Of a DNA stretch of 64,000 bases, positions 33,243-61,242 are shown in pieces (within the stretch, counting starts at the first letter, position 1; the number at the start of each line of letters is the position of its first letter). Source of the DNA: a virus; the IMG/VR virus record IMGVR_UViG_3300046467_002136, positions 32,001 through 96,000 of that record. One strand, given 5' to 3'. The translations under genes were made by a program, and so were the position numbers. Under the pieces are notes generated by a model, which was given only the letters and a program-made list of their open reading frames with translations, was not told the DNA's origin and ran no database searches.

Positions 33243-36200
33243 ATGCCAAATGAACTGCTTGATGACATTCAATTTAAAGCCCGAAACGGTGCTCAGATCA
33301 GCGTTGACAGTGCCCAGGGGATTGTCGAATGTTTTGTTTCTGGCATAGGCAACAAAGACAGCGTTGGCGACATCGTTCTCCCTGGCGCCTTCAATGAAAG
33401 TCTAAAAAGAAGAAAGCCCAGAGTGGTCTGGGGACATAGTTGGAACGACCCCATCGGGAAGGTTCTGGAAATCTATGAGGTCTCCAATGCGGACCCTCGA
33501 CTTCCGCCGAAAATGAAGACTGCCGGAATCGGCGGTCTCTTCGCAAAAGTCCAGTTCAATTTGGCCGCAGAAAAGGGACGGGAAGCATTCGCTAACGTCG
33601 CCTTCTTTGGAGAAGAACAGGAATGGTCAATCGGTTATAAGACCCTTCAAGCCACTTTTGACCCAGTTAAACAGGCCAATTTGCTCAAAGAGGTCGAACT
33701 TTATGAAGTAAGCCCTGTACTACATGGTGCCAACCAGCTAACAGGCACGATTTCTGTCAAGGACGGAGAATACGGTGCCTGCGGAACTGACGGTTGTGAA
33801 TGTGGCACAAAAAGTCACATTGCTTCAGAACCAGATATTCAGGTCGAAGCAGAGGAAGCTTTCATTTTCGAAAAGGGTCAGATGATGGGGCGAGTCCCCA
33901 TGCAGATGATTATCATTCCAATGCCCAAGAAACCAGATAGCGACCCCCACGACGCCGATAGCGACATTTGGGCTCGCGGTGAGGCTGGTCCTATTGACAT
34001 GGAAGCCCGCATGGGGCTAGCACGAGAAATTCACGGGCGAACGAAGGTACCGATCAAAATCATTGAGGCCACCGAGAACATGGTGGTGTTCCTCAGAAAG
34101 ATGGTGGATGGCACTACTCGTATGTACCGGATGCCGTACCACAAGACGGATTCTGGACAATACACGTTTGGGAAACCGGCACGGGTCAAGCCCCAAACGG
34201 TTTATACACCGGTTCAACCGAACATGCCGCCCGTCGGCCCAATGAGTCATAAACCGAATCATTATGTCAGTCCGATTCAAGGAAAAGAAACTATAGAAGA
34301 AGCTAAATCTGATTATCTGATTTCCTGTACGTTGGACAACATTTTTGAATTCAAAGATACGCTTCAACCAATTTTCGATTATTACGAAGTGACAGTGACC
34401 CCTAGCGTTAGTGGGTTGTTATGTAGTGATTATCCGTCTGGATTCGAGGACGCAGCAGATACGGCTATCAAAGCTCTAGGTGGAAGACTCGGGCGAGGTG
34501 GTGGCCTGGGAAAAGGCCGTAGGGCTGGGAGAGCCCTCGCCGCAACGTTCGACCCAAAAGCTTGGGATGGTGATGGTGACGGAATAGTTCAAGAAGGTAC
34601 GCCTTTTCAGCGTCCTTCTATTCCCGGCATTAACACAAATTGGCCCGGCGATCCCAAAACCAGAGTAAAACCCGACGATTATCCTGACGACAGTGCCCAA
34701 GTTAGAGATGCACGGAAGCCTCGTCGTGACCCGAATCGCATGCGTCCGGGCAAAGGACCTGCTCGTCGTCGTGGCGTAATCGATGCAAGGTGGGCGGCAG
34801 GTCTGCGCTCGATTAGTCCAAGTAAGGCTGTCAATGCTTCTCTAGATAAGACCTATCAGGAGTTGGTAGATGAGGGGCTTTTCAAGTACCCAACCAAGCC
34901 GCATGTGGCTGGTAAACCCATTGCGGTAGCACATGGTGCACCGGACCTCGCCAAGTTGGAAGAAATTGTAGAGAAGGGCTGGAGACGGGAAGGGGGGTAC
35001 GAGCAAAGACGTATTTATTTCTTTCCCGAAGGACATGAAAGCTATATGGATTGGGAAGGCGATTACGCATGGGCTCCAGAGGACCCTGTCGTTGATGCAG
35101 GAGTCACGGCACAGGTAACTCCCAAAAAGCCGATCACTATTTTCCACGAAGATACGCATGGCTCCGTCAACGCGCAGATTGCAAAGCAGTTGGGTATCTC
35201 TGAATCAGAACTCAAGTCCACCCTGATGGAACAATCCGAGCTGGTGCCGGGAACGTCAGAGGTCGCAGATACTGCGAGGGCAGCGAAGCCAGCGTGGCCC
35301 GACGACCATCGGTCGCCACTCAGCTTACACAGGGCGTTTGGTGTCGACCTATTTGCAGATTACACAGACAACAAAAACGACGGAGGTAATGGCCATACCT
35401 TGCGCGGCAATATGGGTTCAGAAATAATCGTTATGGATAAAGACATCATCGAAGTCGTCGGTGTGCGGCAAACCGGCTGGAACGAAGACCAGATGGTATT
35501 CCACGGTGGTCGACGCTTATACCGGAGTCGCAACTGGGAACAGGGTCGGGATCGTGAGGTTCTTGATGAAGACAAGTTCCAAGAATGGAGATCGCGCACG
35601 AATGAACTCGCTTCTTCCGGTATGCGTTCACGTTCAGGGGGGAGTTCTGGAGATTGGGAAGACTTAAAATCACAACTTCCATCGCAAGCTATTAGAAATA
35701 TGTCTGTTAAGGAACGTAAAGGCCGACTTGCGGATCTGGATAAGAAAATTGATGTTTTAGAACATGACATGGACGAGATGGGATCGCTCGACCCTGAATA
35801 TAACGAAATGAAACAACGTTTATCGCAGTTGGATTCAGAACGAACAAAGCATCTGATTTCTGCGGCAATTGATAATTGGGAAGGTGGACAAAAAAGTTTT
35901 GTTCGATTGCCCGTCGACTCTAAGGGTGTTGAACTTGAGTTAACACAAGATGAGATCGATTCACTTCGTTCCCATATAAAAGCACTGATTGGTAAAAGCA
36001 AAAACAACAAAGTAAATGGCATTTTAGCAAAATATGATCAAAGACTTGTTGGTAATAAAGATGGTGTAGTAAAAATCCCTAAAGAGCAATTTAGCGACCT
36101 TATTAAAGCGTGGGACCAGATTTCTCCGCCTGCCCAAAGTCGGATGCATCCCAAAACGGGTCGTGACATACTCGAATTTGCTGCACTTTCACCAACCCAA

Positions 36201-38474: not shown

Positions 38475-38519
38475 TGACGCTGTCTAGTAATACTAATAAG
38501 ATGCAACAGGTAGGATACA

Positions 38520-40322
38520 ATGTCTAATAGCGGTCTCAGAGGCAAACAATCGAAGTACCAATGCATGTTGAGCGGCGAAAAGGTCGCGAAACCGTGTGTT
38601 GGCTGCGTCAACCCTAAGGGGTGTCTGTCCAGAGCCATGCAGTACAAGGAGCCTAAACAAATGGGTCTGGAAGAAGAAAACGTAGTCAAGCTGAATGCCG
38701 ATGGTTCGGTTCTTAAGTGTGCTAAGGACTACAGTACAAGTGATTGCGAGTATACTGCAGGTAGTAAGATATGTGGTAAATGCGGCGCATCAGCGATTGA
38801 ACTGAAAGAGAGTCCAATGGAACAAGCCATCGCTAACGATGAAACTCTGGACGACGAGGACGCAGTGCTGATTAAGGCACTTGAAGAAAAAGCCAGCGTC
38901 ATGGACGAGGTGTCCGAAGTCGAAGCCGAAAAACGTCGTATTGAAAAAGACACTCGCGATACCTCCGATACACAATTGGAGGACGACGACGACGATCCGG
39001 ATCACGATGACCACGAAGTCACAGAAGCCAAATCTGAAGATGATGTGGAAGAAAAGGTCGAAGACGAACCAATCGACGAAAAGACTGAAGACGATGGTTG
39101 GATCGGCCTAGAGGAAGAAGAGAAGGACGAAAAGGCTGGCGTTATGATGCGCGAAAGCCGTCTCAACGTCGATGATGAGGAAGAAGAGGAAGAAGAAGAG
39201 GAAGAGGCTCCTGTTGCTGCTGCTCCTCCTCCTGCTCCTCCCGCTGCTCCTGCTCCCCCTCCTGCTGCCGCTGCGCCACCCGCTGCGCCGCCTCCAGCAG
39301 AAGAAGCCCCTCCGGCTCCTATTGCCGAAGAGGAAGAGGCTCCCCCGGCCCCAGCCCCAGCCCCAGCTCTTGCTGAGGAAGAGGAAGAGGAAGAGGAAGA
39401 GGAAGAGTACGACGAATCCTCAGCCAAGAAATCCATGGGTGCATATTTGTGTGCCCTTGACCGAAAGGTCTACCCCGGCAACGCCTCTGTTTGCGACGAC
39501 TGCCCAGGCGGTTGCGTCTCTGAAAAGGGCATGCCCAGCTTGCTCGAAGTCGAACAAGCTCTTGAAATTCAATTCAAGGGCGACGAATATGCAACGGTAA
39601 TTGATTCCGTGTATTCCGATCGCGCAGATCTTTTTATCTGCGATCTTGATGTCGATGGCAAAAAGGTCATCGAAGTATTCGTTGAAGCTAAGTCCGGAGA
39701 GGTTCTCGGATTCAGCCGTCTTGACGATTCTGTCTTTGAACAAAAAGATGCTTTCGAGACAATTGACCTTGTTGACTTCAGCGAGGCTGCCGAAATCGCA
39801 GTTAAGACAGTCGAAGGCGTAGTCAACGCTGTGGAGCCAGACGTGTTTGAATCTTTCGACTGCTACGCGGTAGAAATTAATGGCGTAGACGGCAAGTCCC
39901 ATGATGTGTTCGTTGCTCTTGACGGTGAAGTCTTGGGTTATGACACATACGAACCAGATGAGGCAGAGGCCATCGAGGCCGAAGCTGCTGAAATCGCCCT
40001 TAAACGTGCGTTCTCAGACGATGAACGCGAAGGTTTGGCCGAAGAAGGCCACGCCATGAAGGATGGTTCGTATCCAATTGTGTCGGAAGAAGATCTCCGC
40101 AATGCGGTTCAGGCTTATGGTCGGGCAAGTAACAAATCAGCAACAAAAGCTCATATTATGAAACGAGCTAAAGATCTTGGTCTGGAAGAACTCATTCCAA
40201 CCAACTGGGTTTCTGGTAGTAACGAAAAAGCGATCATGAGTGCAGACGATGCCGAATTCATGGTTTCTCTGATCGAATTTGAATTACTCGCGGAGGAAAC
40301 CAATAACAACGGTCCCATTTAG
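38520..40322 (+). CDS. Acidic head-associated protein, possible scaffold (Cys clusters, poly-Glu/Pro-Ala linker, PepSY-like repeats, DUF6582-like C-terminus)
   Basis: 600 aa with CGKCGA and CDDCPGGC; C-terminal AMKDGSYPI..EEDLRNAVQAYGRA..HIMKRAKDLG. Start uncertain. Confidence 0.6.
   Translation: MSNSGLRGKQSKYQCMLSGEKVAKPCVGCVNPKGCLSRAMQYKEPKQMGLEEENVVKLNADGSVLKCAKDYSTSDCEYTAGSKICGKCGASAIELKESPMEQAIANDETLDDEDAVLIKALEEKASVMDEVSEVEAEKRRIEKDTRDTSDTQLEDDDDDPDHDDHEVTEAKSEDDVEEKVEDEPIDEKTEDDGWIGLEEEEKDEKAGVMMRESRLNVDDEEEEEEEEEEAPVAAAPPPAPPAAPAPPPAAAAPPAAPPPAEEAPPAPIAEEEEAPPAPAPAPALAEEEEEEEEEEEYDESSAKKSMGAYLCALDRKVYPGNASVCDDCPGGCVSEKGMPSLLEVEQALEIQFKGDEYATVIDSVYSDRADLFICDLDVDGKKVIEVFVEAKSGEVLGFSRLDDSVFEQKDAFETIDLVDFSEAAEIAVKTVEGVVNAVEPDVFESFDCYAVEINGVDGKSHDVFVALDGEVLGYDTYEPDEAEAIEAEAAEIALKRAFSDDEREGLAEEGHAMKDGSYPIVSEEDLRNAVQAYGRASNKSATKAHIMKRAKDLGLEELIPTNWVSGSNEKAIMSADDAEFMVSLIEFELLAEETNNNGPI
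39177..39407 (+). repeat. Low-complexity coding tract: two poly-Glu runs flanking a Pro/Ala-rich linker
   Basis: GAG/GAA runs on both sides of GCT/CCT-rich triplets. Confidence 0.8.
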
Positions 40323-40346
40323 GGACTCCCCGAAAGGTGGGTCCGA

Positions 40347-43300
40347 ATGACCGAGTTCTCTCCAAAAAAAAGAACCTACCTCTCAGCAAGAATCCGTCGT
40401 AGACGACGAGATTTAGAAGCTGCTGGGCTGGACTTTCTTGAACGTAGAAACGTTCTTGCTGCACAGCCAACCCTTAACGCTCAAATTGTAGTTAAGGCGC
40501 TTGATGGCAGTATCGGAGATTCTCCTGAAAAGGAAAAAGATAAGTCCAAGAAGCGCACAGCTGGTTCAGGGGTTAAAGAGATAGAGCCCGAGGTTCGTTA
40601 CGACCCTAAAGGTGTTCGTGATCCTGGACAAGTTTTCAAACTGCATGTCACTGCTCGTGACCTCAAAACAGGTGAAGACAATTTCGGGTGGATTGATCCG
40701 CCCGAGGCAGTGCCGAAAGAAAAACAGCGCTCCAGTATGGCTGACGCTATGCAGTGGCGGGCAACTCGGCCTCAGATTCGGATACGGACTTACGATCAGG
40801 ACCCAAGAACGGGTCAACCAATCGTTGAGACTGAGGAAGAAATTCAGGTCAAAGGTCTCGGTAGAACCCTCAAAGACACCCTTCCGGGCCAAAGTCTTGG
40901 GGGGCGTGCGGCCAGCGGCCTTGGTCTCATTGTTGACGCTTTAGGAAAATTCCGTTGCCCACCCGGCACTCCGGCGGCCAATCAGTTCACCGACGAGTTC
41001 GGGACAAACTGTTTCTCGCCTGTAGAGATATTACGCGACACAGTCCGGGGTCTTGTCAATAGTCTCAGATCCAGCAGAGGCCGAAGCTGGTCATTACCCG
41101 GTCGAGGCGATAGCGAAGCGGAACAGCTGAGGTCCAATATCGCAGAGCGGCGCGCAGCCGCCGGTAAAGCCGGACAGCTTATTGGTAATACTGCGTCGAT
41201 TGAAGCAGCCTTGATTGAACGCAACACCGTTATTCAATCTTTAATGGATCAGTACGGCATTTCAGCTGGAGACGAACTAAACGAGGATATGTGGTCATTG
41301 TTGGAAGCAATGACCGATGTAGATACCGGTGATTTCCCCGACCTGGAATGGAAAGGATTGTTCACCAGCATGTTCGGAGATGAACTCTGGGATGAAAATC
41401 TTACGATGCGTCAAAATTTGGAAAAGATGCGTGCGGCAGTTCGCGAAGACGTATTCAGTTTCATGGGTGCACAAACCAAAACGGGTGCACAAGCAATCCG
41501 GGATTCGTATAACCATAGAGACCCCAAAGCGATGGCAATGGTTGACGGTCTTGTTGGTCGACACGAATCAGCGATGCGAGGATTCTTAGGTTCGACTCTT
41601 CACGAGTTCGGAGACGATCCGAGAGCCATGAGCGGTCTCAAAAAGATTTCTTTCCGAGCCTACAACCCAGATATTGACGACTTCCAAAGCTATTGGGGTA
41701 CCGAAGGGGAATGTATTCCCCTCTGGGAAGGTACCGGCACCGGGATGGCCACCAAACTCCAATTCAACGCTACTGCCATTGCCCTGCGACCGTTTCAAGA
41801 GGGTGGACTGACTCATGAGGGTCCGGACGGTCGACCAAAACTCGTACAGGTTGATGCTGGAGGCGCCTTTTCGGCATCAGTAACAGACGCCGAGAAATGG
41901 GCGGCAATCGCAGACTTTCTTGCACATACTGAAAAAATGGAATACTGGCATAAACAATATGCAAATGACCTTACTGCCTCTGCTCACGGTGGAAGCCTCG
42001 AAGCCTTTTCCATGCATGTCGGATATCACGAACTTGCACACGTTAAACAGTATCAACAGATCGCACAACGAGTATTAGAAACCTATGAGCGTGATGGTCA
42101 ATTCTCGATTTACAAAAGAGACGGCACTGGACTCGAATTATTAACTGCGAATCCTTCTGAATGGACAAACGAACAGTTCGCTATGGCCGTTGCCTCCACA
42201 TTCCAAGATGCGCTTCCACCCGGCACCACTACCGACTTTCCCCCGATGGACATGGTCCAATTTGAGGGAAGCATGCTGCATCTTCTCGCAGGACAATATT
42301 ACCAAGACCTGGTTCAAGGTTTCCTGCAAGCAACCTCTGGTGGTTATGCAGAAGATATTACTCCGGGTCAATATGTGAGTCCTTTGGACGCCAGAGGACT
42401 ACCTGTTCACAATTCGGCGAAAGCCCACCTCAACCTGTTGTTTCTAGAGGGAACAGCTGAACTAGCGGCTCTTAAACGAACCGGAGGCATCGCAGGCGAC
42501 GAACTCAATGAAGTTCTTGATTGGATGGACGCAGACATAGCAGACGTTGTCTACGGGATTCCAGAGGTTGACGTTCCGTTTAAACCCGGTTCCATTGTTT
42601 CCGACACTGACATGGGTGAAGCGCCTTGGGACACTCCTCTCGAACCGGGCGAAGTTATGACGCCATCAGGCATCATTATTCCGACTAGTGCTGTGAAAAA
42701 GATAGAAGCAGCAGCGGCGAGGAAGAGGCAAGAACGCCAACTAACTACGGAGAAGCGAAAGCTCGAAACTGCTAGACGATTGCGGCATCGAACAGAAATA
42801 CACAGTTGGGGCAGCGGCGGGGACGGTGAAATCAAAACTGCGTCTGATGGAACAAAATATGTTTGGATCGGAGCATTAAGTGGTGAGGGCGAATGGCAGG
42901 TGCTATTTGATGACCTGTTTGAACCAGCATTTCTGGAGGAGCTAGAAGGTGTCACCCCACCCGAAGTGGACTATGACCTTCCACCCGGCATGCGCTCTGG
43001 CGGTATGCGCTCTAGGCGAGAATTGGGCCAATTCGACAACGGACCCAGAGTCGGAAAGTTTTCCGGAGAAACACACGAAGAACCAGACGGCTCAGTCTGG
43101 GAGTTTCGCCCTACTCTTCGGGATCGTCCAGAAAAAGGTGGTTTCTGGCGTGATATGACAGACCCTGCAAACCGACGAGAAATAGCCGAACGCGCCACAC
43201 GCAGACGCCAATTGGAAGCTCAAGAGGGTCGAAGCATGGGACGACTTGCTCGCCCGGGGGCTGGAAGCGAATGGGAAAACATTGTCCGGAGGGGCGATGG

Positions 43301-50000: not shown

Positions 50001-50431
50001 CCCGGGGAGAAGGTGGCATAGATGCCATGAGAGATCATCGCGTCTTTGAAGAGGGTGGACCACTCGAAGAGATTCTTAGTAACTTGGTCAGCGCTATTGT
50101 TCAAGACGGCAGCTTCTGGGATGGCTTAAATGACACAGACATCGACCTGCTGAAGAATTTATCAGATAATCTTGGGTATAGGGCTTATGGCAGTTATTCG
50201 GGTGCACACACTCCGCACGCTCTTCTCGACGAGCTAACAGGAGGAGGACGCCACGAACTAGTAGCAGAATTTATGACTCTTATGAATACTGGAATGGATT
50301 TTCCGATTTGGGGTCCGAAAGGCCGTCGACCACTTACCCCTGCGGAAGTTACTGCATTAACCCGCTTATTCAAATGGCTTTCTCCTAAAGGAACGCCAAA
50401 AATACGATCAGGAGGAATCACATATGACTAA
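47078..50431 (+). CDS. Large head-region protein with DGD tag and possible atypical zincin motif
   Basis: 1117 aa: ARDGDLDGFLQEGTEW, THEFSGH and a distal ELVAE. Confidence 0.65.
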   Translation: MKAIHVANTGDSRIYYLLESDNDSTGVVVKRNSPPTFVNFFAYVSKKPQIQRLMDSDFHKFLWTGNKGSLKPRWEHVFIDRVAEPVDLLVGVNVISKFKTDDGPNRVRQMEEKANRAIEYRSLVSAGLNEKAFARSVGRMAGRAATGAVRGFRRGVRFDRHARDGDLDGFLQEGTEWARAATPSRTDLTTQETVGYKQPGRPRFMKDKPPDPTTLFDASREELRAAKGRYYRWKKAEAGASAHGVGLVDPEELLQSWIDLENELSEAFLDGRPIRTTDDFREVAAQLHSGFGPNLNQKMKIVYDSNGDPVDRKYDISGGSYFDLITPDRKGDEELSLYERYTALAVMRGLRDNPDLQNHTLQIAHEDDLVPSNPVINGPKGVGGQAGGLMGWNWKVNKIALQLLRATTGTREERNKRFSERLDEMLEIDKVPSQRNRHPKPRITIGLRKEKDHSNLLDFEIGLTAEYASKMGHNTATTALVVLAAHLDNVPQSEQASVVKRGKAIFGATIATHEFSGHGSHTSNIKSFADKDAGGDHNALKRAFERIKEHLGKNPIADKTALDLDSEQIDKTGKGGYNLAHGAFGPKAIVSMDKASAKLSNQGKVRGVLSVEPDTMGVGQWLGYLDQKEKPGSNRVERLHEWLRQPIMDGDGNPFTATPGLAQYFNALAGEAGLSWPGIDLTISQGEELTLAHVLYGMSPSINFGEIQLLSAEASNMGLTRLSDHRKGKYLSYRPRTGTASGANWTDITDKAIFVRVGDDMKPLDSIPSGVLDQIPWYMSVGGVELFDQGVLPAPTVLREHGIPAFKFPNTQGSSIDSSGPHSSNTSSSDPVSPEDVAPLLDAHAVVNRILADEKSSIPVTPPPVTNVQTAFKDPFNPTDLEQRANKKRLNEEEVKRNQNYLAKLLKVRFNKIKESKSEVGTTGLPITELVSNKSPAQRVEIRQRLVDQLLASLIYDHKFIDQSRRSSTARIDKPRGEGGIDAMRDHRVFEEGGPLEEILSNLVSAIVQDGSFWDGLNDTDIDLLKNLSDNLGYRAYGSYSGAHTPHALLDELTGGGRHELVAEFMTLMNTGMDFPIWGPKGRRPLTPAEVTALTRLFKWLSPKGTPKIRSGGITYD

Positions 50432-50843: not shown

Positions 50844-50869
50844 ACGTAAACTATTATGGGTGACTACAC

Positions 50870-51514
50870 ATGACAACTGACAGTTACGACATCAAAGGGC
50901 CACAGGACGTTCTACTCGATCTCCCCCAGGAGAGATTGACATCAATTACTCGTGGCCATGGACCAAGACGAGGCAATCTAGAGCGATTGCTTAGATATTG
51001 GCGCCCAATCATGAAAAAGCCCGGCGGGTTCACACGCTGTCGTGTCATTCTTAAAAATCACCCAGAGCTATACCCCCTGGAAAGAATTTGTGCGTGGCTT
51101 CATCACGAAACCACCGGCAAATGGCCCAATGAAGGCTGCCATCATCCGGGTATGAAGAACTGTAAAGGAAAACTTCGAAAGTTGGGATGGACAGATGCCG
51201 AGTGGGGCAAGCGAATACGCAAACGCTTCAAGAAACGTAAAAAAGGTTTTGATGAATCTTGGGATCAGGAAGACGTATTCTTCGGAGACTTCTTAGAGTC
51301 TAAGAGCTCTTATACGACTATAGAGTATAATCCTGTAGTAACTACAAGTGACCTCAAGCATGCTTCAACCGTTTTAGCTGATTTCGTTGTGATGGAAAAG
51401 GACTTCACGTCCTACCTCCGAGATCACAACAATTGGGAATTAGTCGGAGAAGGCGACGACGGCGACGAATGGGTTGCGGATTTCAGCGAAGCTAAGGACT
51501 GTGGGTGCGAATAA
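50870..51514 (+). CDS. Head-associated hypothetical protein with Cys/His motif
   Basis: LLRYW..PGGFTRC...ICAWLHHETTGKWP, a motif I associate with actinophage head proteins. Confidence 0.6.
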   Translation: MTTDSYDIKGPQDVLLDLPQERLTSITRGHGPRRGNLERLLRYWRPIMKKPGGFTRCRVILKNHPELYPLERICAWLHHETTGKWPNEGCHHPGMKNCKGKLRKLGWTDAEWGKRIRKRFKKRKKGFDESWDQEDVFFGDFLESKSSYTTIEYNPVVTTSDLKHASTVLADFVVMEKDFTSYLRDHNNWELVGEGDDGDEWVADFSEAKDCGCE

Positions 51515-51516
51515 AT

Positions 51517-53454
51517 ATGGCGACTTCCTACACCTACACGAAGGAATTGGATTGCTGCGGCGGCTTGGAAGTGCAGGTCAAACGAACAATCTTACGAAAA
51601 CTTGACGACACCATTCCTTCGGGTCTAATCCGGCATACACGCGCATCTGACGAAATCATTGGCGAATACAAAGCCTTATCTCATAGAAATGGAAATACTC
51701 GTCAGTACGACATCAGCGTAACTACCAAAGCGGGTTTAGTCAGATCGGGCTCCCGTCTCGGGCAGGCAGCTCAGGCAGCGGGTTCGATCATCACACCTGG
51801 AAACATTTCTAGAGTTCGAAGTCCCCTACGTTCGGCTGGATGGCGGGCACTCACCCCTGGCCTCCCCGGAGGCGGACGAGGTATTCGCAAACGTGGACGG
51901 GCACACCGATGCCCAGAGGGCTACCAATACGGTGGTCGATTCACTGACAATCAACTATCCACTTGCGGCCAACAACTTTTTGATATTCCATCTGCCCTCG
52001 GTGCAACCATTGCCGCTATCCGCAGAGCCGCTGCCGGTGCACCCACGGCACCCGAAGGTGAGGTAATTCGTGGACGCCCGGGCCGAAACGTTTTACAAAG
52101 CCGTAAGCCAGACATTCCTCGCGTCGGGAACGACAATCGCCAAGAACGTATTCGTGCTACAGGAAAAGTCATAGAAGCCATGGGTAAGCCCGACATAGAC
52201 ACGGCTCGGCTTGTTCGACGCGATGGCTTTCAGCTTGAACCAGTAGTTCCTCCCGCAGTATTGCGCACCATCCCCGACAACAGGGACATGGAAGGCGCCA
52301 CCTACCTAATGAATCTCACATCCGTTGATGGAATGGGTGGCGAAGAGTTGGGTCTCCTCTCCAATACGGGAGTTACCAATATCTCTTACGTTCTTCCTGA
52401 CGGATCTTCTCTTTCTATTGAAAAGGTTCGAGGGCTCACAGTCGGTGAGCGTAGGAAACTGGGCCGCACTGTTAATGCTGCCATGAAAAAAGACAATTCT
52501 AAAGATCCTGCGGCCAGACTGAAATTTGTCGACGAGGAGACCGGAACGGGCATCGCATACACCGAGAACTGGGCAGGATCAGCTCGTTCCGTTGCGGATG
52601 CCCTCAAGTCCAAGCCAGGAAAAACACCCACGGTGGAAGCTGAAGCGCCCGAGGCTGAAGTGCCCGAAGGTGTTGGCGACAAAATCAGTAATGTCAGTGA
52701 CGCTGTAACCCACATCAACGGTGGGGGCAGTCTCGCTGGAATTGATCCATCTATTCTCCAAGCTGCGATGCGAAAAGCGGGTAAAAAACGACCCGGAGGC
52801 ATCATCGAGGTCGGCGATAACCGTTATCTTATGCAGTCTTCGAAAACCGATTTCGACCATTTGCACGTTGCTACGGCAGCGGAAATACAAAATCATCTAG
52901 GTCTGGCAGCATTCCCCCCAGCGTTTGCGGGGAAGGGTGGCAAGCGGCGCGACTACGTTCTCGCTGCTCCATCTATGGATACTGATCGAACATTCGACGA
53001 TGTAGACCCAGCAGACGCGGTACGCATGCTCCTGGCTGACTTAATTCTCGGGGTCAACGATAGGCCGCCCACCGCTGTAGGAATACAAGGCGAAGCAACA
53101 GTACCGACACACATACCGTCTGCACTTGAAGATTTGGATAAAATCAGCATACAAGAGAGAATTGAAGAAAGTATTTCTTCGATGAGACCACTTGCAGATG
53201 AAAGTATATATTCCTCGCATTATCAACAATTACGAATAGCTCAACAGGAAGAATTCCGCAACGAACTTGAACGCCTTCTTGAAAGGGCTCGTACATTCAA
53301 TTTTACTGATTATAAAGATCGCCTTTATCGTGACGGTTCTTTATCTGCAGCCGAAAAAACTCATCTAAATGTTATTCAAACAATTGTTGAAGCTCGCATC
53401 CAAACACTTGCTGCTTCCTATGACGCGATTCTTGACCGCTTGGACGGTAACTGA
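51517..53454 (+). CDS. Head-region protein with RCPxG tag and degenerate HipA/PI3K-like kinase fold
   Basis: ATG at 51517; RCPEGYQYGGRFTD; AAEIQNHLGL...RMLLADLILGVNDRP. Confidence 0.6.
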   Translation: MATSYTYTKELDCCGGLEVQVKRTILRKLDDTIPSGLIRHTRASDEIIGEYKALSHRNGNTRQYDISVTTKAGLVRSGSRLGQAAQAAGSIITPGNISRVRSPLRSAGWRALTPGLPGGGRGIRKRGRAHRCPEGYQYGGRFTDNQLSTCGQQLFDIPSALGATIAAIRRAAAGAPTAPEGEVIRGRPGRNVLQSRKPDIPRVGNDNRQERIRATGKVIEAMGKPDIDTARLVRRDGFQLEPVVPPAVLRTIPDNRDMEGATYLMNLTSVDGMGGEELGLLSNTGVTNISYVLPDGSSLSIEKVRGLTVGERRKLGRTVNAAMKKDNSKDPAARLKFVDEETGTGIAYTENWAGSARSVADALKSKPGKTPTVEAEAPEAEVPEGVGDKISNVSDAVTHINGGGSLAGIDPSILQAAMRKAGKKRPGGIIEVGDNRYLMQSSKTDFDHLHVATAAEIQNHLGLAAFPPAFAGKGGKRRDYVLAAPSMDTDRTFDDVDPADAVRMLLADLILGVNDRPPTAVGIQGEATVPTHIPSALEDLDKISIQERIEESISSMRPLADESIYSSHYQQLRIAQQEEFRNELERLLERARTFNFTDYKDRLYRDGSLSAAEKTHLNVIQTIVEARIQTLAASYDAILDRLDGN

Positions 53455-56400
53455 TGAGACAGTTCGCTATTATCAAAGACGTTAGTTCAGACAAACTTTT
53501 TGCAATTATTGTCAAAGGTGATGATTTTACTGTCTGCCACGGGGTTCATCCTGTTGGCAAACAGTGGGCTGACAGTTACAACAAGGGTTTAACCAAATCC
53601 ATTTATGACGACCTTCAGCCGGGAATTTCGGTTGGGTCGTTCGCTCCGGTAACCACAACAACGCAAGCTTTGATTGATGAGGCAATCGAAGGGAAACCCG
53701 TTCGTTTTCCTGATCACTCACAGCTTACATATGTCAAGTCAGTTAACTACAGATATGACGGAGAAATCCCCCAAGTAAAAGATGCAGGGCTATCAAATCT
53801 GACAGATAAAGATTTCTTTGTTGGGGCAGACTATAAGGGAGTAGCTTTTCGTGCCGATGCTGCAAGACTTTCACTTTTGGCCAAAGCTCGTTTAGGGCAT
53901 TTTGGAACTGATTCTAAAGGTTTCAATTTTACTGAAAAGGGAACAGATCAGAAAGCTCTAAACGAAGAATTGTTTCAAACTGCTCGGGGGTCCGGCAATG
54001 TCCGTCGTGCAGCTAAAGCAGTGCTTTTAGAAAAGCATTTAAACTTAGAGGAACATCCGGGGTATCTCGGAACAAGAGAACATTCGTCACCTATCCGTAC
54101 AAAAGCCAATCGTCTTGGTCGAAGAATTGGCCGAGGAGGAGGCAGAGGTAGGGGTGGCGGAGGTATTCGCAAAATTGGACGATCGATGCAAGACCCGTTC
54201 GATCCAAAGGCTTGGGATGGAGATCATGACGGGATAGTTCAGGAGGGCACCATATGGGAACGCCCTTCAATACCGGGAGTTAACACGAATCTTCCGGGCC
54301 AACGTCGCACCCGAACAAAGCCTCGCAACTACCCAGCCGATGACGCAGACGGTGTCGAATTCAGATTGCGTAATCGTCGTGAAGAAAACCGTGCCCAAAA
54401 TGAAATTCTAAGTACTCCGGTTGGAGAGGTTATTGAAGAATTCCCCGAAGCAACCGAAGCTCTCAGAAACACACTTTCAGGATTCCCTGAAGGCGATGAC
54501 ATCTGGGAAACTCCACTAAGAGACATCACAGATAATGGAGAATACTTCGGTGAGGATGATTTAGATCGACTTCTTGATGCTGCTGTACCACGGCGTCGAG
54601 AAGGTGCCACTGACAGCTTCTATCGCGATGAACAAGGCATGCGCTCCCAAAGAGACGCACCTCCACCTCCTCCGGTTCCCGAGCGTGAAAGTGAGCGTGA
54701 TTTTGGCGACCCGCCTCCTCCCCCGCCTGTACCCGAACGACGCGATTTACCTGAACCGCCAGAGCCTGGACCCCGAGCATCCGCTCCCGCTCCAGAGCCT
54801 CCAGAGCGGAAGCCACAATTAGTTCTACCTCACGCGGGTACGAGCCATGGGCAGATGACCCCTGAACAGCGACGAGAGCAACTCGACGCTATGGAATACG
54901 AAATCCCTGCCGCCAGAGCGAAGTCACGCCAAATGCGAGAAATCGCTCAAGAACGTAATCAAGATCTGAATTTCTTTAGGGGACGAGGCGCAGACGGGAA
55001 ACGCCGAAACCGGCATCGTCCTGGCAGTGAGGCAGCAGCAGAGCGTGGTGAAAAGCCCTCAGGTATGAACGAGAACGCTTGGCATCGCAATGAAACAGAA
55101 TGGCTTCAAAGACAGATCGACAGTGCCAACGAAGGCGTGTACTTTTGGGACCAAACAGATTACCAATGGTCCTTACAGCAGCAGAGTCTGCGAGAGTTTA
55201 ATGCCCGTGGTGAAATGGCAGCCCCCCGGGGTATGCGTTCTGAACGATATGACATCACACAAGATGAAGCTGGCAAATGGCGTGTGATGGATACGGGCAA
55301 CAGAAACATGCGGCTTCCCGAAGAATATGACAACCGCGAGGACGCTTTAAGAGAAGCGATACGAAGAGATAACCCCCGTGGTGGCATGCGATCTACGCGA
55401 CCGCTTACGCCCGAGGAACGTGCTGACCACGAAGAACGATTCGGCCCGGGAACACGAGATGGTACGCGACCGCTTACGCCCGAGGAACGTGCTGACCACG
55501 AAGAACGATTCGGCCCGGGAACACGAGATGGTACGCGACCGCTTACGCCCGAGGAACGTGCTGACCACGAAGAACGATTCGGCATGCGTTCCTCAATTGA
55601 AGTTGGATCTGGACGCCCTAGTGGAGAACGGATCGCCAGGGCGCGGGAAGAAGTCGCCTTGTCAGCTGGACCCCAGCGGACCAGTGATGGCCGTCTGTAT
55701 GACGAACGAACTCACGGAGAACTAGTAGATGCCTTCACAGGTGCAGGATTGTCTATCTCTGAAGCAGAAGCAGAAGCAGATCGGAGAATGCAACATCGAT
55801 TTGGTGACAGGTGGCTGCAACACCCCTTAAACCGTGATCGCATATCTGGTCGAGGCGGCATGCGCTCGGAAAGCGGAGGCGAATCTCAACAAGATCGAAT
55901 CGATCGCCGAGAACGAGGCGAGTTCGACGAAATGACCCGAGTCGGGCGAGCCGCCAGAGAAACTCATGAAGAGCCAGACGGTTCAGTTTATGAATTCCGT
56001 CCTACTCTTCACGACAAACCTGAACGGGGTGGCAATTGGATTGACATTACAGACCCCGGCCAAAGATCTGAAATGGCTAGGCGTGCTACGCAAAGGCGTC
56101 AACACGAAGCCCAAACGGGCACGAGCATGGGGCGGTTAGCGCGACCGGGTGCTGGCAGTGAATGGGATCGAACTACGAGAGGTGGAATGCGCTCTAGGAC
56201 GCGTGATGCTTCAGTAGATCGTGCCTCTCAATTGCAAGGCATGCGCTCAGGCGGCAGACGACGCCGAGGCCAAGCTCAACCTGGACTTGATCGTCACTCA
56301 GACATTGACGGTCAGATTTGGGAAACTCTTACCGACGCTGAAAGAGCACATGTCGGAACGGCGATTGATACAGAAATGCGTAGACGCATGCACGGACTCG

Positions 56401-58184
56401 CATGGAACGACATGGACGGCATAGATCCTCGCAAGCCAAAACAAAAAAAGCGTTCAGAGATGACCCCCGAAGAAGAAATGGAAGCAACCTTCCACGTCAA
56501 CCCCCTCGGAGGGATCGTAAAACAGTATTTCGATCAAGAAATCAGGCCAGGCTTTAAAAAAGACTATGACGGTGACGAACTTGCCCAAAAACTTAGGGAC
56601 TATGTTTTCACCGACACCGACATCGACACCATCGAAGCCGCGATAGAAAGTCAAATCGAAGCGACTGGTGACGCAACTGACAAAGCTGCCGACCAGCTGA
56701 AAGATCAGTTAAGGGAAATTCGGATCTACCGAAACATGGTCGAACAAAGCAATAACGGCAAAGACTCTGACGCCTTCCAATTCCTTGAGCATCTTACGCC
56801 AACACAGCGCGCCCGAATCTATAACCGTGCAAACGGTGCTGACAAGGATCGTCTGAAAACAAGTAAAGCTTCTTGGGGTCTCAGTAAGGGCAATCGCATC
56901 AATTCAACTATCGGCAGCACGTTCACTGAACGCCAGACCGCCATTGACTCCGTTAAGCCCGGTGTGAGGCGTCGTGCAGGAGAGTTCTCCCGGTCGATGG
57001 CACAACGCATTTGGGCTCCAAACCCGAACAGTGCTTATCGTCGTGCGCTTAGAAAGGCTCGACGCGGAGGGGCAGGAAGTTCTCTTCCCGGTTTCCGTCG
57101 TGAAGAGGATAAAAGATCAATAGTTGCCCGCCGTGTCGCTCAACTGCGACGCAAGTTGCGGGTCGTTAAGGGTCGTAAAGGTATTCAAGGCGCAATCAAT
57201 GCTTCTGAAAAGAAACAAATCAAGAAAGCAGTCGATTTCGACGCAGACGGCAAGTTGGTTACAAGCGACGAAGGTATCGCACGTCTCGGCAAAGCCTCCA
57301 GAGCACTACTCGGCGACAAGTCGCTCCTGAAAGATGTCAGGATGAAGGGTCGTGGCGGTAAGGGCACGGACGGAGCTAGCGAAGATGAGGTCGAGAAGAT
57401 ACTCAATCAGAACCCAGAAATGGCTGTCATTTGGGACGCTATGGGCATGAATGATTTGCCGGTTGTTGTAGACGATGACAACTTCGAAGCCCTGATTGAT
57501 GCTGGCCATCCCGTTATAGGTCGAGGACACGGAAGCGCTAGCAATGCGACCGATTATCTTGATGACGAATTACGTTTCCTCCCCGGAGGAGGCGGTGAAG
57601 CATCAGGCAAGGGTGAGTATTGGTCAACCGGCCAAGGCAGTTGGGGTAGTTGGCAAACTACAGAAGGAGGCAACACAGCTGCTGTTCTTACACCCAATGT
57701 TCGTCGCATGGACGGAGACACTTTAGACGCCGAATCTACCGCTAATAGATCCGTTAGTCAGGCATTCGAGCTTGTGCGAGCAACCTATCCCGGAGATGAA
57801 TTAGAAAAAGCAGACATTGCCGAAGTCGTCTCCAAGATGGATGCTGAAATAGCAAAAATAACAGATCTTGCCGAAGGTGCCCCTATTTGGGAAACCGAAG
57901 TTGGTCAACTCTGGACACACTTGTTGGATTCGATCCGCACCAGCGGCAACCCCGACTCTTTGAATGCCATGTTGCTGCTTAACAAAATTAATAACACCAG
58001 AGGCGGCAGAAACCTTATTGCCCCCATCTTGGGTTATGACACAATCCAGTCGGGTAGCGTAGAGTTGGTGATGAACCGCAGTGCCGTCATCACCCTAGGC
58101 AGAACCCTTGGTTCTTCAGGATTGAGTCAATTCTTTAAGCAAGCATCAGATGTACGCAGCGAAGGCAGAAGGGCTAGAGCATGA
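53454..58184 (+). CDS. Giant polyvalent head-region protein with C-terminal ADP-ribosyltransferase-like domain
   Basis: 1576 aa: DGDHDG tag, 7 GMRS sites, a 69-bp tandem repeat, and C-terminal RG..GxGxYW..GYD..VMNR. Confidence 0.7.
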   Translation: MRQFAIIKDVSSDKLFAIIVKGDDFTVCHGVHPVGKQWADSYNKGLTKSIYDDLQPGISVGSFAPVTTTTQALIDEAIEGKPVRFPDHSQLTYVKSVNYRYDGEIPQVKDAGLSNLTDKDFFVGADYKGVAFRADAARLSLLAKARLGHFGTDSKGFNFTEKGTDQKALNEELFQTARGSGNVRRAAKAVLLEKHLNLEEHPGYLGTREHSSPIRTKANRLGRRIGRGGGRGRGGGGIRKIGRSMQDPFDPKAWDGDHDGIVQEGTIWERPSIPGVNTNLPGQRRTRTKPRNYPADDADGVEFRLRNRREENRAQNEILSTPVGEVIEEFPEATEALRNTLSGFPEGDDIWETPLRDITDNGEYFGEDDLDRLLDAAVPRRREGATDSFYRDEQGMRSQRDAPPPPPVPERESERDFGDPPPPPPVPERRDLPEPPEPGPRASAPAPEPPERKPQLVLPHAGTSHGQMTPEQRREQLDAMEYEIPAARAKSRQMREIAQERNQDLNFFRGRGADGKRRNRHRPGSEAAAERGEKPSGMNENAWHRNETEWLQRQIDSANEGVYFWDQTDYQWSLQQQSLREFNARGEMAAPRGMRSERYDITQDEAGKWRVMDTGNRNMRLPEEYDNREDALREAIRRDNPRGGMRSTRPLTPEERADHEERFGPGTRDGTRPLTPEERADHEERFGPGTRDGTRPLTPEERADHEERFGMRSSIEVGSGRPSGERIARAREEVALSAGPQRTSDGRLYDERTHGELVDAFTGAGLSISEAEAEADRRMQHRFGDRWLQHPLNRDRISGRGGMRSESGGESQQDRIDRRERGEFDEMTRVGRAARETHEEPDGSVYEFRPTLHDKPERGGNWIDITDPGQRSEMARRATQRRQHEAQTGTSMGRLARPGAGSEWDRTTRGGMRSRTRDASVDRASQLQGMRSGGRRRRGQAQPGLDRHSDIDGQIWETLTDAERAHVGTAIDTEMRRRMHGLAWNDMDGIDPRKPKQKKRSEMTPEEEMEATFHVNPLGGIVKQYFDQEIRPGFKKDYDGDELAQKLRDYVFTDTDIDTIEAAIESQIEATGDATDKAADQLKDQLREIRIYRNMVEQSNNGKDSDAFQFLEHLTPTQRARIYNRANGADKDRLKTSKASWGLSKGNRINSTIGSTFTERQTAIDSVKPGVRRRAGEFSRSMAQRIWAPNPNSAYRRALRKARRGGAGSSLPGFRREEDKRSIVARRVAQLRRKLRVVKGRKGIQGAINASEKKQIKKAVDFDADGKLVTSDEGIARLGKASRALLGDKSLLKDVRMKGRGGKGTDGASEDEVEKILNQNPEMAVIWDAMGMNDLPVVVDDDNFEALIDAGHPVIGRGHGSASNATDYLDDELRFLPGGGGEASGKGEYWSTGQGSWGSWQTTEGGNTAAVLTPNVRRMDGDTLDAESTANRSVSQAFELVRATYPGDELEKADIAEVVSKMDAEIAKITDLAEGAPIWETEVGQLWTHLLDSIRTSGNPDSLNAMLLLNKINNTRGGRNLIAPILGYDTIQSGSVELVMNRSAVITLGRTLGSSGLSQFFKQASDVRSEGRRARA
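55394..55583 (+). repeat. Perfect 69-bp tandem repeat, 2.75 copies (TRPLTPEERADHEERFGPGTRDG)
   Basis: Identical units start at 55394, 55463 and 55532, in frame, with GMRS on both sides. Confidence 0.95.
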
Positions 58185-58495
58185 TTACTCCAGAAAATCA
58201 TAAGGAATATCACATAATGCTCTCAACGCTTCTGCGGTACCCCCCGTTCTCCACTGAAGACGACGAAAACGGCGACGAATTGGATTACATCGCTGGTAAA
58301 GAACTAATGGCCTACCACGACGAGGTTATCGCGCCAGCATCCAAAGGCGGAAACCTAGATTGGGAATTAGAGGGTGAACCCTTCGAAGAGTTCAGAGAAA
58401 AATGGAAAGACGAACTTGAAGAGGCTGAACTTTACCAATCCAGACATGGTGACGATTTCGCTGCCGCCGCAAAAGCTGCCAGCGGCGATGAATAA
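58181..58495 (+). CDS. Small acidic protein (possible immunity/antitoxin)
   Basis: 104 aa, D/E-rich, ATGA-coupled to the ORF ending in the ART-like domain. Confidence 0.6.
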   Translation: MITPENHKEYHIMLSTLLRYPPFSTEDDENGDELDYIAGKELMAYHDEVIAPASKGGNLDWELEGEPFEEFREKWKDELEEAELYQSRHGDDFAAAAKAASGDE

Positions 58496-58497
58496 CG

Positions 58498-61242
58498 ATG
58501 CCCGAGGCGCGCACGGACTCCGAAACTGCCAAGAAAGCACAGGCTCTAAGAGAGGCTGCTGAACTCGGCTGTACTGGTGCGCACCGTCATCCCGATGGAA
58601 CATGGATGGCGTGCAGCACAATGCAAGAATATGAGCGTCTCACCAATGGCGAAAAAGAAAAAAGCTCTTTAGATCTCATTGAGGAAACCCAGAAGATCCG
58701 TTCCCAAAAGGGTCGCAAGCGCAAGAAGAAAACTAAGCGCCAATGGGACAAGTTAAGGGAGCGAGGTGTCACTGGAATTGACACTCTGTCTGGTGGTGGA
58801 CTCGTATCCGGTAAGGGTATGACTTTTCGACCCGTAGACGGTGACACAGACGTTTTCGACAACATCAACCAAGCGCGTCGTAGAGCACGCCAATTGGGAT
58901 GTATCGGTGTATCTAGACGTACTTCCCGTAGTGGACGTAGGGTTTGGACCCCGTGCACCAACATGACGGACTATGCGCGCGCCACTGGTAGTACGGCTCT
59001 TGGAAGGCGCTACCAGCAAAGACTGGAACGTCAACGAATACGAAATATTGTTCGTGAAGAGCTATCTAAAATGAAACGACGTAAAAAGCGTTTATTTGAA
59101 GAAGTGTACGAAGCCAAAGGTATCGGTCGCCGTATCGGACGTGCTGCACGGTTTGACCCGAAGGCTTGGGATGGCGATCATGACATGATTGTCCAAGAGG
59201 GCACCCCATTTGAACGTCCTGCCATTCCTGGAATTAATACCAATCTTCCGGGGAGAAAAAAAAGAGGTATGCGCTCTGTTTGGGATGGGAAACCCGGCAC
59301 AGTTCAACGCCCAGAACCTAAAGCAAAACCAAAACCCGTAACCGACGAAGTCAGAATGGCGTCTCTCGGTAAGGAAATTGACAAGTTGCGGATAGGGAAA
59401 CTTAACCCTCTGCTTCAAGAACTCAAAAAAGCCCAAAAAGAAGGCGACCACGCGGGAGTTCTTCGCATCAGAAACTTGATGGCGCCACTTCAACAAGAAG
59501 AATCACGTCTTCGTGAAGAACTCGGCACCGCCATGGGTAAAAGCAGATCGGATCTATCGTTAGGAGCTTCTGCAAATGGTGGCGTGCGTTCCCGCCGTCA
59601 AATCGATCATATGCTTCAGACTCCGCAGCAAAATATTGCCGATATGGAAGCTGACATAGATGAGTATTTCGCCTTTTTGGATGAACATAGTCGAATTGAT
59701 TTTCAGAGACATTCCATCTATCGACCTGGCGATAAACGTATTCGGAAAATAGGAGAACCGTCAACAGACCAATATTCGAGTGGAGAAGAGTATGGAGCTT
59801 TACCTGAGATAGACCAAGACATTATCGAAGAGCATGACGATCTTTGGGGAAAGGTCGAGTGGTGGGCGAACTTTATTGAACAGTCAAGGATTGAACGCAA
59901 CGACTTGACAACCGAACTTAGAGAAAAAGAAGACGCGTTAGATAGCGCAACGGAAAGCGCTCATAGGCCATATCACGCAGATACTAGAGATTTCTTAAAA
60001 GCCATCGACGGTGACGAAGATAGAGACACCTTTATTGAGCGCACATACGGCCCCTTCGAAACCAACCAGAGAGATCTGGAATACGGTGGCAGTAGTGAAC
60101 CTGAGTGGCGTGAAGATCAATGGGGAAGGGATACCTTCAACCAGTACACCGACTACTGGGATGATTTGATTCGGATACGAGAAGAAACTTCATATATACA
60201 ATATGAAATAAACTCGATTCAGGATCAGATTGATAAATACCATGGGAACGGTACTGAATTCGCCAGAGACGATTATCGTAAAGCTCTAGAAGCCAAGCTG
60301 TCTAAAAAGACCAGCTCAGAAGTGATCAAGGGTGAGCTCGCTGAAGGGCGAATTGCTCTTGATCCTACTCAGGGTTTGCGTTCGCGTAGAGATCGTTTAA
60401 GCCCTAGTGAAAAAGAGTGGCTTAAGATGCTTCAAGATAATCCTGGTCTTTGGGCTGAAGCCCCAGCAAGCGTGCGAGCGATTGCTTCAGACAAGATGAA
60501 ACGTGAAGCACTCCAAATACGCAACGATTTTTCAGGTGGGATGCGAAGCGGACGCTTTGGTAGCGGCGGAAAAGCAATGGGCCAGCGAATACTTGCCAAG
60601 GTCAAGCCAGAACACAGAAACAAGGAAGATAGAACCCTTTACTTCATTGGCGGCACAACGGGTTCCGGTAAATCCACTTTAGTAAAAAATGGCTCCTTCG
60701 GCGTTCCGAACGATACTGAAGCTGCCCACATAGATCCGGATTTCATCAAAACGGGCTTAGAGGGCTGGGACCCCAAAAACGCCACCGCGTTTCACGGAGC
60801 ATCCGTTACAGCAACTCGCGGCGTTCTAGATAGTGCTGCCAACGCCAAGATGGACGTTGTTGTACAAGGCACAGGGAAACGAGCCGAACACCTCCATACT
60901 GCCAGATCGCGCGGCTATTCGACTGTTGGGCATTTTGTTTATGTCCCCGGCAACGAGGCGAATAAAAGAATTGCTCAACGAACAGCGGCTGGTGGGCCTG
61001 ACATCCCAACCGGTTTTGGTACCCAAATCGCTGGAGAACTAAAAGGCCATGTAAGCAGACAAATAACACAAGGCTTATATGACGAGTTCTTCTTATGGGA
61101 CAATACGGGAGATACACCAAGATTGATAGCATTCAGAAATAGGGATGGGCATTTCGAAATCAATAGCAGAACTGAGTTCGATGCTTTCTTTAGTGAGACC
61201 GGCGCAAAGTATGTAGAAAGGTATTGGAAAGATAACCAATGA
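58498..61242 (+). CDS. Polyvalent head-region protein with C-terminal zeta-toxin-like P-loop kinase
   Basis: 914 aa: two LGCxG..W.(P/A)C repeats (DUF3721-like), DGDHD tag, 4 G[MLV]RS sites, GGTTGSGKST, HIDPDFIK, LWDNTG. Confidence 0.78.
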   Translation: MPEARTDSETAKKAQALREAAELGCTGAHRHPDGTWMACSTMQEYERLTNGEKEKSSLDLIEETQKIRSQKGRKRKKKTKRQWDKLRERGVTGIDTLSGGGLVSGKGMTFRPVDGDTDVFDNINQARRRARQLGCIGVSRRTSRSGRRVWTPCTNMTDYARATGSTALGRRYQQRLERQRIRNIVREELSKMKRRKKRLFEEVYEAKGIGRRIGRAARFDPKAWDGDHDMIVQEGTPFERPAIPGINTNLPGRKKRGMRSVWDGKPGTVQRPEPKAKPKPVTDEVRMASLGKEIDKLRIGKLNPLLQELKKAQKEGDHAGVLRIRNLMAPLQQEESRLREELGTAMGKSRSDLSLGASANGGVRSRRQIDHMLQTPQQNIADMEADIDEYFAFLDEHSRIDFQRHSIYRPGDKRIRKIGEPSTDQYSSGEEYGALPEIDQDIIEEHDDLWGKVEWWANFIEQSRIERNDLTTELREKEDALDSATESAHRPYHADTRDFLKAIDGDEDRDTFIERTYGPFETNQRDLEYGGSSEPEWREDQWGRDTFNQYTDYWDDLIRIREETSYIQYEINSIQDQIDKYHGNGTEFARDDYRKALEAKLSKKTSSEVIKGELAEGRIALDPTQGLRSRRDRLSPSEKEWLKMLQDNPGLWAEAPASVRAIASDKMKREALQIRNDFSGGMRSGRFGSGGKAMGQRILAKVKPEHRNKEDRTLYFIGGTTGSGKSTLVKNGSFGVPNDTEAAHIDPDFIKTGLEGWDPKNATAFHGASVTATRGVLDSAANAKMDVVVQGTGKRAEHLHTARSRGYSTVGHFVYVPGNEANKRIAQRTAAGGPDIPTGFGTQIAGELKGHVSRQITQGLYDEFFLWDNTGDTPRLIAFRNRDGHFEINSRTEFDAFFSETGAKYVERYWKDNQ

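Follow-up and report, generated by a model that had tools for sequence, protein, structure and literature searches.

A short acidic peptide shared by giant head-block proteins of an uncultured phage as a candidate mark of capsid cargo

Why do four giant and otherwise unrelated proteins, encoded together between the portal and major capsid genes of one uncultured phage, carry the same short acidic peptide? The question arises in bases 32001-96000 of a 114,037-bp IMG/VR virus record (IMGVR_UViG_3300046467_002136), a stretch of 64,000 nucleotides referred to here as the window, in whose numbering coordinates are given unless stated otherwise. The record has a completeness of 76% (CheckV), which corresponds to a full genome of ~150 kb. 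The initial annotation interpreted the peptide, hereafter the tag, as an address label that docks cargo polyproteins on the procapsid, scaffold, or portal. The tag is real, virus-restricted, and concentrated in the portal-to-capsid block, where it is found on proteins with effector-type domains at the junction between a conserved front and a variable region. Judged by its sequence and gene context, its most probable role is to mark proteins for loading into the capsid. The reading developed below, to which we assign a probability of about one half, is that the tag belongs to a cut-and-tag junction repeated for each protein unit and would dock each unit to a common procapsid partner.

A peptide under selection in unrelated carriers

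The translations at 34548-34649, 47549-47616, 54198-54299, and 59152-59253 agree exactly with the four peptides originally described. The pattern FDPxAxDGDxD[G/M]xxQEGT has exactly four copies in six frames, one per large carrier, and the regular expression D.D.D[GM]...EG likewise gives four matches in the six-frame translation, all in the named open reading frames (ORFs), compared with a mean of 0.0 over 200 shuffles of the window. All four carriers are encoded on the plus strand. The first (33243-38474) is a fusion of 1743 amino acids with an S78 (HK97-type) prohead protease domain at residues 24-169. The second (47078-50431) is 1117 amino acids in length and has neither a family match nor a G[MLV]RS site. 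The third (53454-58184; 1576 amino acids) begins with a small alpha/beta domain (residues 1-85) in an AlphaFold2 (AF2) model, followed by a variable middle and a conserved C-terminal part, while the fourth (58498-61242; 914 amino acids) contains DUF3721 at its start (58534-58626, plus strand) and a Zeta_toxin-type kinase at its C-terminus. Most modules of these carriers have no family match. The description of the carriers as otherwise unrelated is borne out by all-against-all BLASTP of the head-block proteins, in which only 50-79 residues around the tag are common to them (E 1e-17 to 3e-4). Each carries one tag, at residues 442/1743, 164/1117, 255/1576, and 225/914, respectively, N-terminal of any G[MLV]RS sites.

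Comparison of the tag copies at the DNA level distinguishes selection from recent duplication. Pairs among three close copies are identical at 28-29 of 34 residues (82-85% peptide identity), with a longest identical DNA run of 11-14 nt; across the comparisons between copies, DNA identity is 73-78% and the longest identical run is 7-14 nt. Identical residues are encoded by the same codon in 12 of 27, 12 of 28, and 15 of 28 cases, where codon usage predicts 9.7-10.6. Synonymous sites are thus near random between copies, and the peptide has therefore been kept by selection rather than by recent DNA copying or gene conversion. The occurrence of the same selected peptide in three unrelated proteins is the strongest evidence here for what would be a common function or partner. 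In orthologue families of the carriers, similarity begins at residue 1 and extends through the tag, after which it breaks (q1-464/469, q1-277/296, and q1-254) and gives way to a variable middle and then a conserved C-terminal part. In an alignment of 12 sequences (A4), 15 of the 31 invariant columns fall within the 27 tag residues. In each carrier, the tag thus closes the conserved front block.

The element common to the carriers is larger than the peptide first described, as a K-[A/G]-[L/I/F/N]-[G/A] box is present 18-38 residues upstream and is connected to the tag by a Gly/Arg/Ala-rich linker. Alignment of the window copies with 77 distinct copies from related loci defined a three-part module consisting of a K-[A/G/S]-[L/I]-G box (the Lys box), a Gly/Arg/Ala-rich linker of 10-30 residues, and the tag, with the consensus [FY]-[DN]-P-x-A-x-D-[GA]-D-x-D-G-x-V-Q-[ED]-G-T-x-[WF]-x-R-P. 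The plus-strand junction module of the protease fusion (34470-34649) contains a K410-ALGG box, a Gly/Arg-rich linker, and the tag FDPKAWDGDGDGIVQEGTPFQRPSIPGINTNWPG. That of the 1117-residue protein (47468-47616) has a K131-AFARSVG box, a Gly/Arg/Ala-rich linker, and a divergent tag, FDRHARDGDLDGFLQEGTEWAR, and that of the 1576-residue protein (54102-54299) has a K217-ANRLG box, a Gly/Arg-rich linker, and the tag FDPKAWDGDHDGIVQEGTIWERPSIPGVNTNLPG. In the 914-residue protein (59116-59253), a K207-GIGRRIGR box leads to the tag FDPKAWDGDHDMIVQEGTPFERPAIPGINTNLPG, with the first GMRS 5 residues further on. The tails of the tag are lineage-specific, e.g., IPGINTNLPG in the window phage and IPGVNDRATGG in another lineage, and unrelated carriers of one genome share the same tag flavour.

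A search of the whole record revealed a fifth, more divergent tag, TK-ATGYNPDARDGDGDGLVQDGTEWEREAK (YNPDARDGDGDGLVQDGTEWERE), at 19415-19498 on the minus strand. It begins at residue 102 and forms the C-terminus of a 120-residue protein, which is encoded by an ORF (19412-19774, minus strand) just upstream of the tail-sheath gene and has a match in phrog_7924, a family to which no function is assigned. No tag is present in the protein that Gordonia phage Chidiebere encodes at the same position. The two large head proteins that lack the DGD tag contain an alternative junction on the plus strand. In a 2243-residue protein, a K169-GLGR box and a Gly/Arg linker precede an RCPxG..FTD..C tag instead (junction, 40851-41015; tag, 40953-41015), and in a 649-residue protein, a K75-AGLVRSG box and a Gly/Arg-rich linker precede an RCPEG..RFTD..C tag (junction, 51727-51969; tag, 51907-51969). 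A distant protein, P0053, holds both DGD and RCP tags.

AF2 modeling of the tag from a 43-sequence alignment gave a short hairpin with disordered flanks and a predicted local distance difference test (pLDDT) score of 72-79 in the core, which is consistent with a small autonomous peptide module. A model of residues 1-300 of the 1576-residue protein, built on a shallow alignment, was confident in the small N-terminal domain only, with pLDDT <45 in the tag region, and VIA-align searches with that domain returned only generic helical matches (Z<=6.1). No match to the tag model was found with Foldseek, nothing relevant was found among PDB sequences with tag profiles A2 and A6, no family in Pfam or NCBIfam covers the tag, and the ESM Atlas gave no usable match.

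Distribution of the tag and its genomic setting

Confinement of hidden Markov model (HMM) matches to the head region of related phages was the check proposed with the address-label interpretation, and most tags in the viral records compared behave accordingly. For 17 viral records that contain both landmark genes, 55 of the 63 tags are located between the portal and capsid genes, compared with 27.4 expected, and 0 of 200,000 simulations reached 55, although these records are mutually related, so that independence is overstated and the statistic is indicative only. The prohead protease is tagged in most relatives, which counts in favor of head cargo because the protease must itself enter the procapsid. 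The tag is near-confined to viral sequence, with at least 359 IMG/VR loci versus 6 in 185,579 species genomes of GTDB, all 6 of which are contigs of metagenome-assembled genomes. Among 1.84 billion representatives, a 43-position tag profile matched clusters built at 50% identity, 872 of them at E<=1e-3 and 113 at E<=1e-10, and a broader profile matched 744 90%-clusters. Almost all matches are large phage proteins, mostly of 500-3400 amino acids, and the domains found on tagged proteins include S78 protease, Zeta-toxin kinase, ADPrib_exo_Tox, ART-PolyVal, NUDIX, RNase_T, MuF, LPD1, HTH, sigma, and portal. A tblastn search of 50,697 deposited phage genomes with tag regions and tagged proteins gave no tag match, an absence that is weak since the low-complexity filter was on and may mask DGDGDG. 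The matches of one tagged protein (P0043) in this search, to mycobacteriophage and Rhodococcus phage E3 proteins, lie outside its tags only. Searches for loci related to two distant proteins, P0116 and P0043, yielded next to nothing.

The placement of the tag within proteins departs from a single label at the front of each polyprotein. The tag starts within the first 50 residues in 52 of 173 cases and in the first quarter of the protein in 61%. In many tagged proteins it immediately follows the initiating Met, without a Lys box, and many others have 2-5 tags, one ahead of each module. Tags also occur at the C-terminus, in P0053 and in the 120-residue protein of the tail block. Two portal fusions, P0079 (3015 amino acids) and G037:C1:34871-38197, have long C-terminal extensions with 2-5 tags, one ahead of each module, and by this architecture the portal itself is the apparent cargo carrier in both. 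The S78 protease frame (586 amino acids) abuts or overlaps a 978-residue frame containing the first tag in G029 (C1:36341-38061), and likewise in G031 and G032, an arrangement that may represent a frameshifted or split form of the protease-cargo fusion.

Additional variation is found among individual tagged proteins. Orthologues of the 914-residue carrier (P0021-P0027) contain additional KTSC (PF13619) domains and keep the C-terminal Zeta_toxin-type kinase, and one of them, P0026, has gained the tag and downstream cassette of the protease fusion (80% identity). The small tagged proteins (P0089, P0133, P0138, P0142, and the product of 19412-19774) have nothing in common except the tag; Lys/Ala/Pro-rich tails resembling histone H1 are found on several, a hydrophobic helix at the N-terminus on one, and a PG_binding_1 domain in P0089. 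In a related 118-kb record (G013), a tag is found at ~residue 47 of a 3212-residue ORF (L097:9591-19229), which lies among genes unrelated to the head, ~10 kb beyond the capsid gene. This N-terminal tag is the ORF's sole recognisable feature, as Pfam, PDB sequence, and PHROG function searches with this protein were empty. Similar giant ORFs are present in G007, G008, G016, G020, and G024.

In the window, the tagged carriers belong to a plus-strand block (31150-62800) that is bordered upstream by a portal gene (PF04860; 31150-33144, plus strand) and downstream by an HK97-fold major capsid gene (PF05065; 61466-62800, plus strand). The block also encodes the 2243- and 649-residue proteins, a 214-residue protein, and an extremely acidic protein of 600 residues (38520-40322, plus strand), for which a family search gave no match. 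The sequence of the acidic protein includes three Cys-cluster (zinc-ribbon-like) segments as well as a long poly-Glu/Ala/Pro stretch; it may serve as scaffold or core and may pair with the basic Gly/Arg linkers. Myovirus tail genes, including those for sheath, Neck1, and a chaperone, occupy the minus strand upstream of the head block. Past the capsid gene, at 94000-113900 of the record, the gene content changes to replication and nucleotide functions (AAA_25 helicase-like, methyltransferase, and class II ribonucleotide reductase genes), along with an SLT lysozyme-like gene. The closest capsid proteins from cultured phages are those of Gordonia and Brevibacterium phages (47-48% identity), which likewise have additional genes between portal and capsid.

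Candidate roles of the junction module

The features of the junction that suggest processing came from the Lys box, which is found once ahead of every tag, including those of the RCP type, and once in the capsid protein. In the latter, an EFK116/ALANG box (61811-61831, plus strand; residues 116-122) is located within a long N-terminal scaffold-like region, and its F-K-[A/T/S]-L motif is kept in orthologues of 55-94% identity. The capsid protein contains no G[MLV]RS site, which, together with the conserved EFK box, raises doubt that the S78 protease uses GMRS. The GMRS sites are found 5 to ~350 residues downstream of the tag, whereas the candidate Lys box lies upstream. HK97 gp5 has the sequence FNK/SLGS, in which the S78 protease gp4 makes the known maturation cut, at Lys103/Ser104. 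The window boxes resemble this site in reading K-[A/G/S]-[L/I]-G, in the presence of a similar box in the capsid protein, within its N-terminal scaffold region, and in the assignment of the proteases to the same Pfam family. They differ in that a MAFFT alignment places the HK97 and window capsid boxes in different columns and that the cut is a prediction here. The segment removed in HK97 maturation is 104 residues in length (PMC9024508). Upstream of internal tags, [ED]xK[AGS] occurs in ~30% of cases compared with a background of 11% after removal of 19 self-hits in FDPKA, which is only a moderate enrichment. From these comparisons, the Lys box appears to be a better candidate than GMRS for the capsid-protease cut, and GMRS may serve the same enzyme, or a different one, as an additional site. 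Should cleavage occur at the Lys box, the tag would remain at the mature N-terminus, unlike the capsid-targeting sequence (CTS) of T4, which is removed.

In the proposed mechanism, the junction module of 50-80 residues would mark the start of protein units bound for the capsid interior in a large family of uncultured phages. The acidic DxDxDG-type loop and the QEGT-x-[WF]-ERP hairpin would constitute a small docking peptide, possibly stabilised by Ca2+, and all tagged proteins of one phage would display it to one common partner within the procapsid during assembly. Candidate partners include the capsid protein's scaffold (delta) region, the protease or core, and the acidic protein encoded at 38520. 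Enzymes would thereby be co-assembled into the head, and the S78 protease would likely cut at the Lys box just upstream, releasing each unit with a tag that lies at, or close to, the N-terminus so created. Here, encapsidation, the binding partner, Ca2+ binding, and Lys-box cleavage are predictions from sequence. A junction for each unit is favored over one label per polyprotein because the portal fusions are tagged ahead of every module. The address-label proposal survives in part: a shared and selected peptide, a tagged protease fusion, a head-block location, and the T4 and P1 precedents agree with it, and it fits less simply with tags ahead of every module in portal fusions, C-terminal tags, untagged proteases in some lineages, and tagged phages in which no S78 protease was detected.

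Several observations weigh against the cut-and-tag docking junction. Eight of the 63 tags are found outside the head block, in small ORFs on the tail-gene strand and in giant ORFs ~10 kb past the capsid gene, and the positional statistic is subject to the relatedness noted above. Stand-alone proteases in G028 and G033 are untagged, whereas G037 and G038 have tags and no detectable S78 protease. The modules of the portal fusions (P0079 and G037) are tagged even though they are tethered already, and a simple address would be redundant there. Ca2+ binding is uncertain, as some copies of the loop have M, R, K, or A in place of Gly at position 6 and the match to Excalibur is sub-threshold. Finally, the deposited phage genomes gave no tag match by tblastn with the low-complexity filter on.

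Among the alternatives, the one that fares best, although it is unlikely, is that the tag is a processing signal only. It would then act as an exosite, bringing the adjacent Lys box or the GMRS sites to the maturation protease and setting where polyproteins are cut, with loading governed by the conserved N-terminal domains or other features. The tight coupling of Lys box and tag, which in P0043 and P0079 are separated such that the tag follows 3-5 residues after K-A, fits this proposal, as do the single tag per module of multi-module and portal-fused proteins and the conserved domain found ahead of the tag in every orthologue family. However, many proteins have a tag right after Met and no Lys box, the capsid protein has a Lys box and no tag, the protease itself is tagged, and tags occur in G037 and G038, where the protease was not detected.

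A somewhat more doubtful possibility is that the tag is a generic Ca2+-binding staple or linker of the Excalibur or EF-hand type that stiffens or stabilises giant multi-domain proteins at their joints and plays no part in sorting. As the initial annotation observed, the loop has the DxDxDG form. With their acidic position 10, DGDGDGIVQE, DGDHDGIVQE, and DGDLDGFLQE fit this form, and DGDHDMIVQE has Met at position 6. The tag shares with Excalibur (DxDxDGxxCE), EF-hand, and dockerin loops the D-x-D-x-D-G spacing, a hydrophobic position 8, and the acidic position 10; it is located at domain junctions, and an Excalibur-repeat protein is among the profile matches. Dockerin provides a precedent for a Ca2+-dependent docking peptide. 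The similarity to Excalibur is limited, however: the best match to PF05901 scored 14.2 bits (E 0.058) against a cut-off of 22 and involved the small 120-residue protein only, whereas the four window tags had no match to Pfam Excalibur at E<=10 and have Gln rather than Cys at position 9. In the AF2 model the tag also lacks the flanking helices of an EF-hand, and position 6 is non-Gly in some copies. The strictly conserved flanks, QEGT-x-[WF]-ERP and [FY]-[DN]-P-x-A, are specific to the tag and are found in no known Ca2+ loop, and neither the viral head-block restriction nor the flavour shared within each genome is predicted by a generic linker.

Calcium might instead act as a switch. In this rather improbable version, the tag would be an N-terminal handle kept after the cut, which holds the unit at a common site in the head and, upon an ionic change at ejection, releases it or orders its passage through portal and tail. 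Such a mechanism would be unlike the cleaved-off T4 CTS and would make injected effectors of uncultured phages recognisable from sequence alone. A more extreme variant would involve Ca2+-triggered self-cleavage at the [D/N]-P bond, which is conserved 4 residues ahead of the loop. Self-processing modules of the FrpC type have a scissile Asp-Pro bond followed by a Ca2+-binding self-processing domain of ~170 residues. Membership of the tag in this class was rejected, given a conserved unit of only ~30 residues with disordered flanks and the absence of D-P in IYDGT-type variants.

Less probable still is a role after ejection, in which a retained N-terminal tag serves as a leader through the portal and tail channel, or as a Ca2+-triggered refolding or envelope-anchoring element outside the cytoplasm. 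The location of tags near natural or predicted mature N-termini and the peptidoglycan-binding domain (P0089) or Lys/Ala/Pro-rich tails of some small tagged proteins would suit such a role, whereas C-terminal tags (the 120-residue protein and P0053) would not, and the maturation protease is tagged yet is not expected to be ejected. Lastly, a recombination junction conserved as DNA to aid shuffling of modules between cargo genes is scarcely credible and was rejected, as the DNA identity (73-78%), the 7-14-nt runs, and the near-random synonymous codons offer too little for homology-driven exchange and place the conservation at the peptide level, even though orthologue similarity ends right after the tag and the tag with its downstream cassette has moved between carrier types (P0026).

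Comparison with known capsid-targeting signals and polyvalent proteins

Capsid-cargo signals and polyvalent proteins are already known, whereas the tag itself, as far as the searched databases indicate, is widespread and uncatalogued. Phage polyvalent and injected proteins form a repertoire that matches the domains found on tagged proteins (PMC5512222). Like these proteins and the MuF- and portal-fused effectors, the tagged proteins are giant, multi-domain, and encoded among head genes, and tagged relatives include ART-PolyVal, LPD1, MuF, portal, and ADP-ribosyltransferase or kinase domains. Several unrelated domains are combined in a head-linked polypeptide in the window as well, as illustrated by the protease fusion and by DUF3721 with a Zeta_toxin kinase. 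A difference is that head association here would occur via the S78 protease fusion and the tag rather than via MuF. The text of PMC5512222 covers the domains and not a junction peptide, and does not mention calcium, EF-hand, Excalibur, or linker.

Precedents for short capsid-targeting peptides are the CTS of T4 IPIII and the 30 N-terminal residues of P1 DarB (PMC9024508). Like the CTS of T4 (IPI-III and Alt) and the P1 DarB signal, the tag is a short peptide on otherwise unrelated proteins that are packaged in the head (presumably so in the present case) and delivered with DNA; it would likewise be coupled to processing by a prohead protease, and the cargo includes large anti-host enzymes, such as the 250-kDa DarB of P1. 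A peptide common to unrelated head proteins of one phage is found both in the window and in relatives. The tag has no sequence similarity to these signals, and its position is not the extreme N-terminus, as the window copies start at residues 442, 164, 255, and 225 and that of the small protein at 102/120. The T4 CTS consists of ~10 N-terminal residues and is cut off immediately downstream, whereas the tag is ~30 residues in length, often internal, sometimes repeated or C-terminal, and likely cut upstream. Furthermore, the function of the T4 and P1 signals has been demonstrated, while the tag is known from sequence alone.

If the tag does mark capsid cargo, metagenome searches with an HMM of 30 residues would recover phage-delivered enzymes of hundreds of families. 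Among these would be ADP-ribosyltransferases, kinases, and nucleases, together with many domains whose function is unknown, encoded by phages without a cultured representative. A further use of the tag would be as a portable peptide with which to load foreign proteins into capsids of the HK97 type. Alongside the signals of T4 and P1, the tag would then represent a second and mechanistically different example, in which the peptide is retained downstream of the cut.

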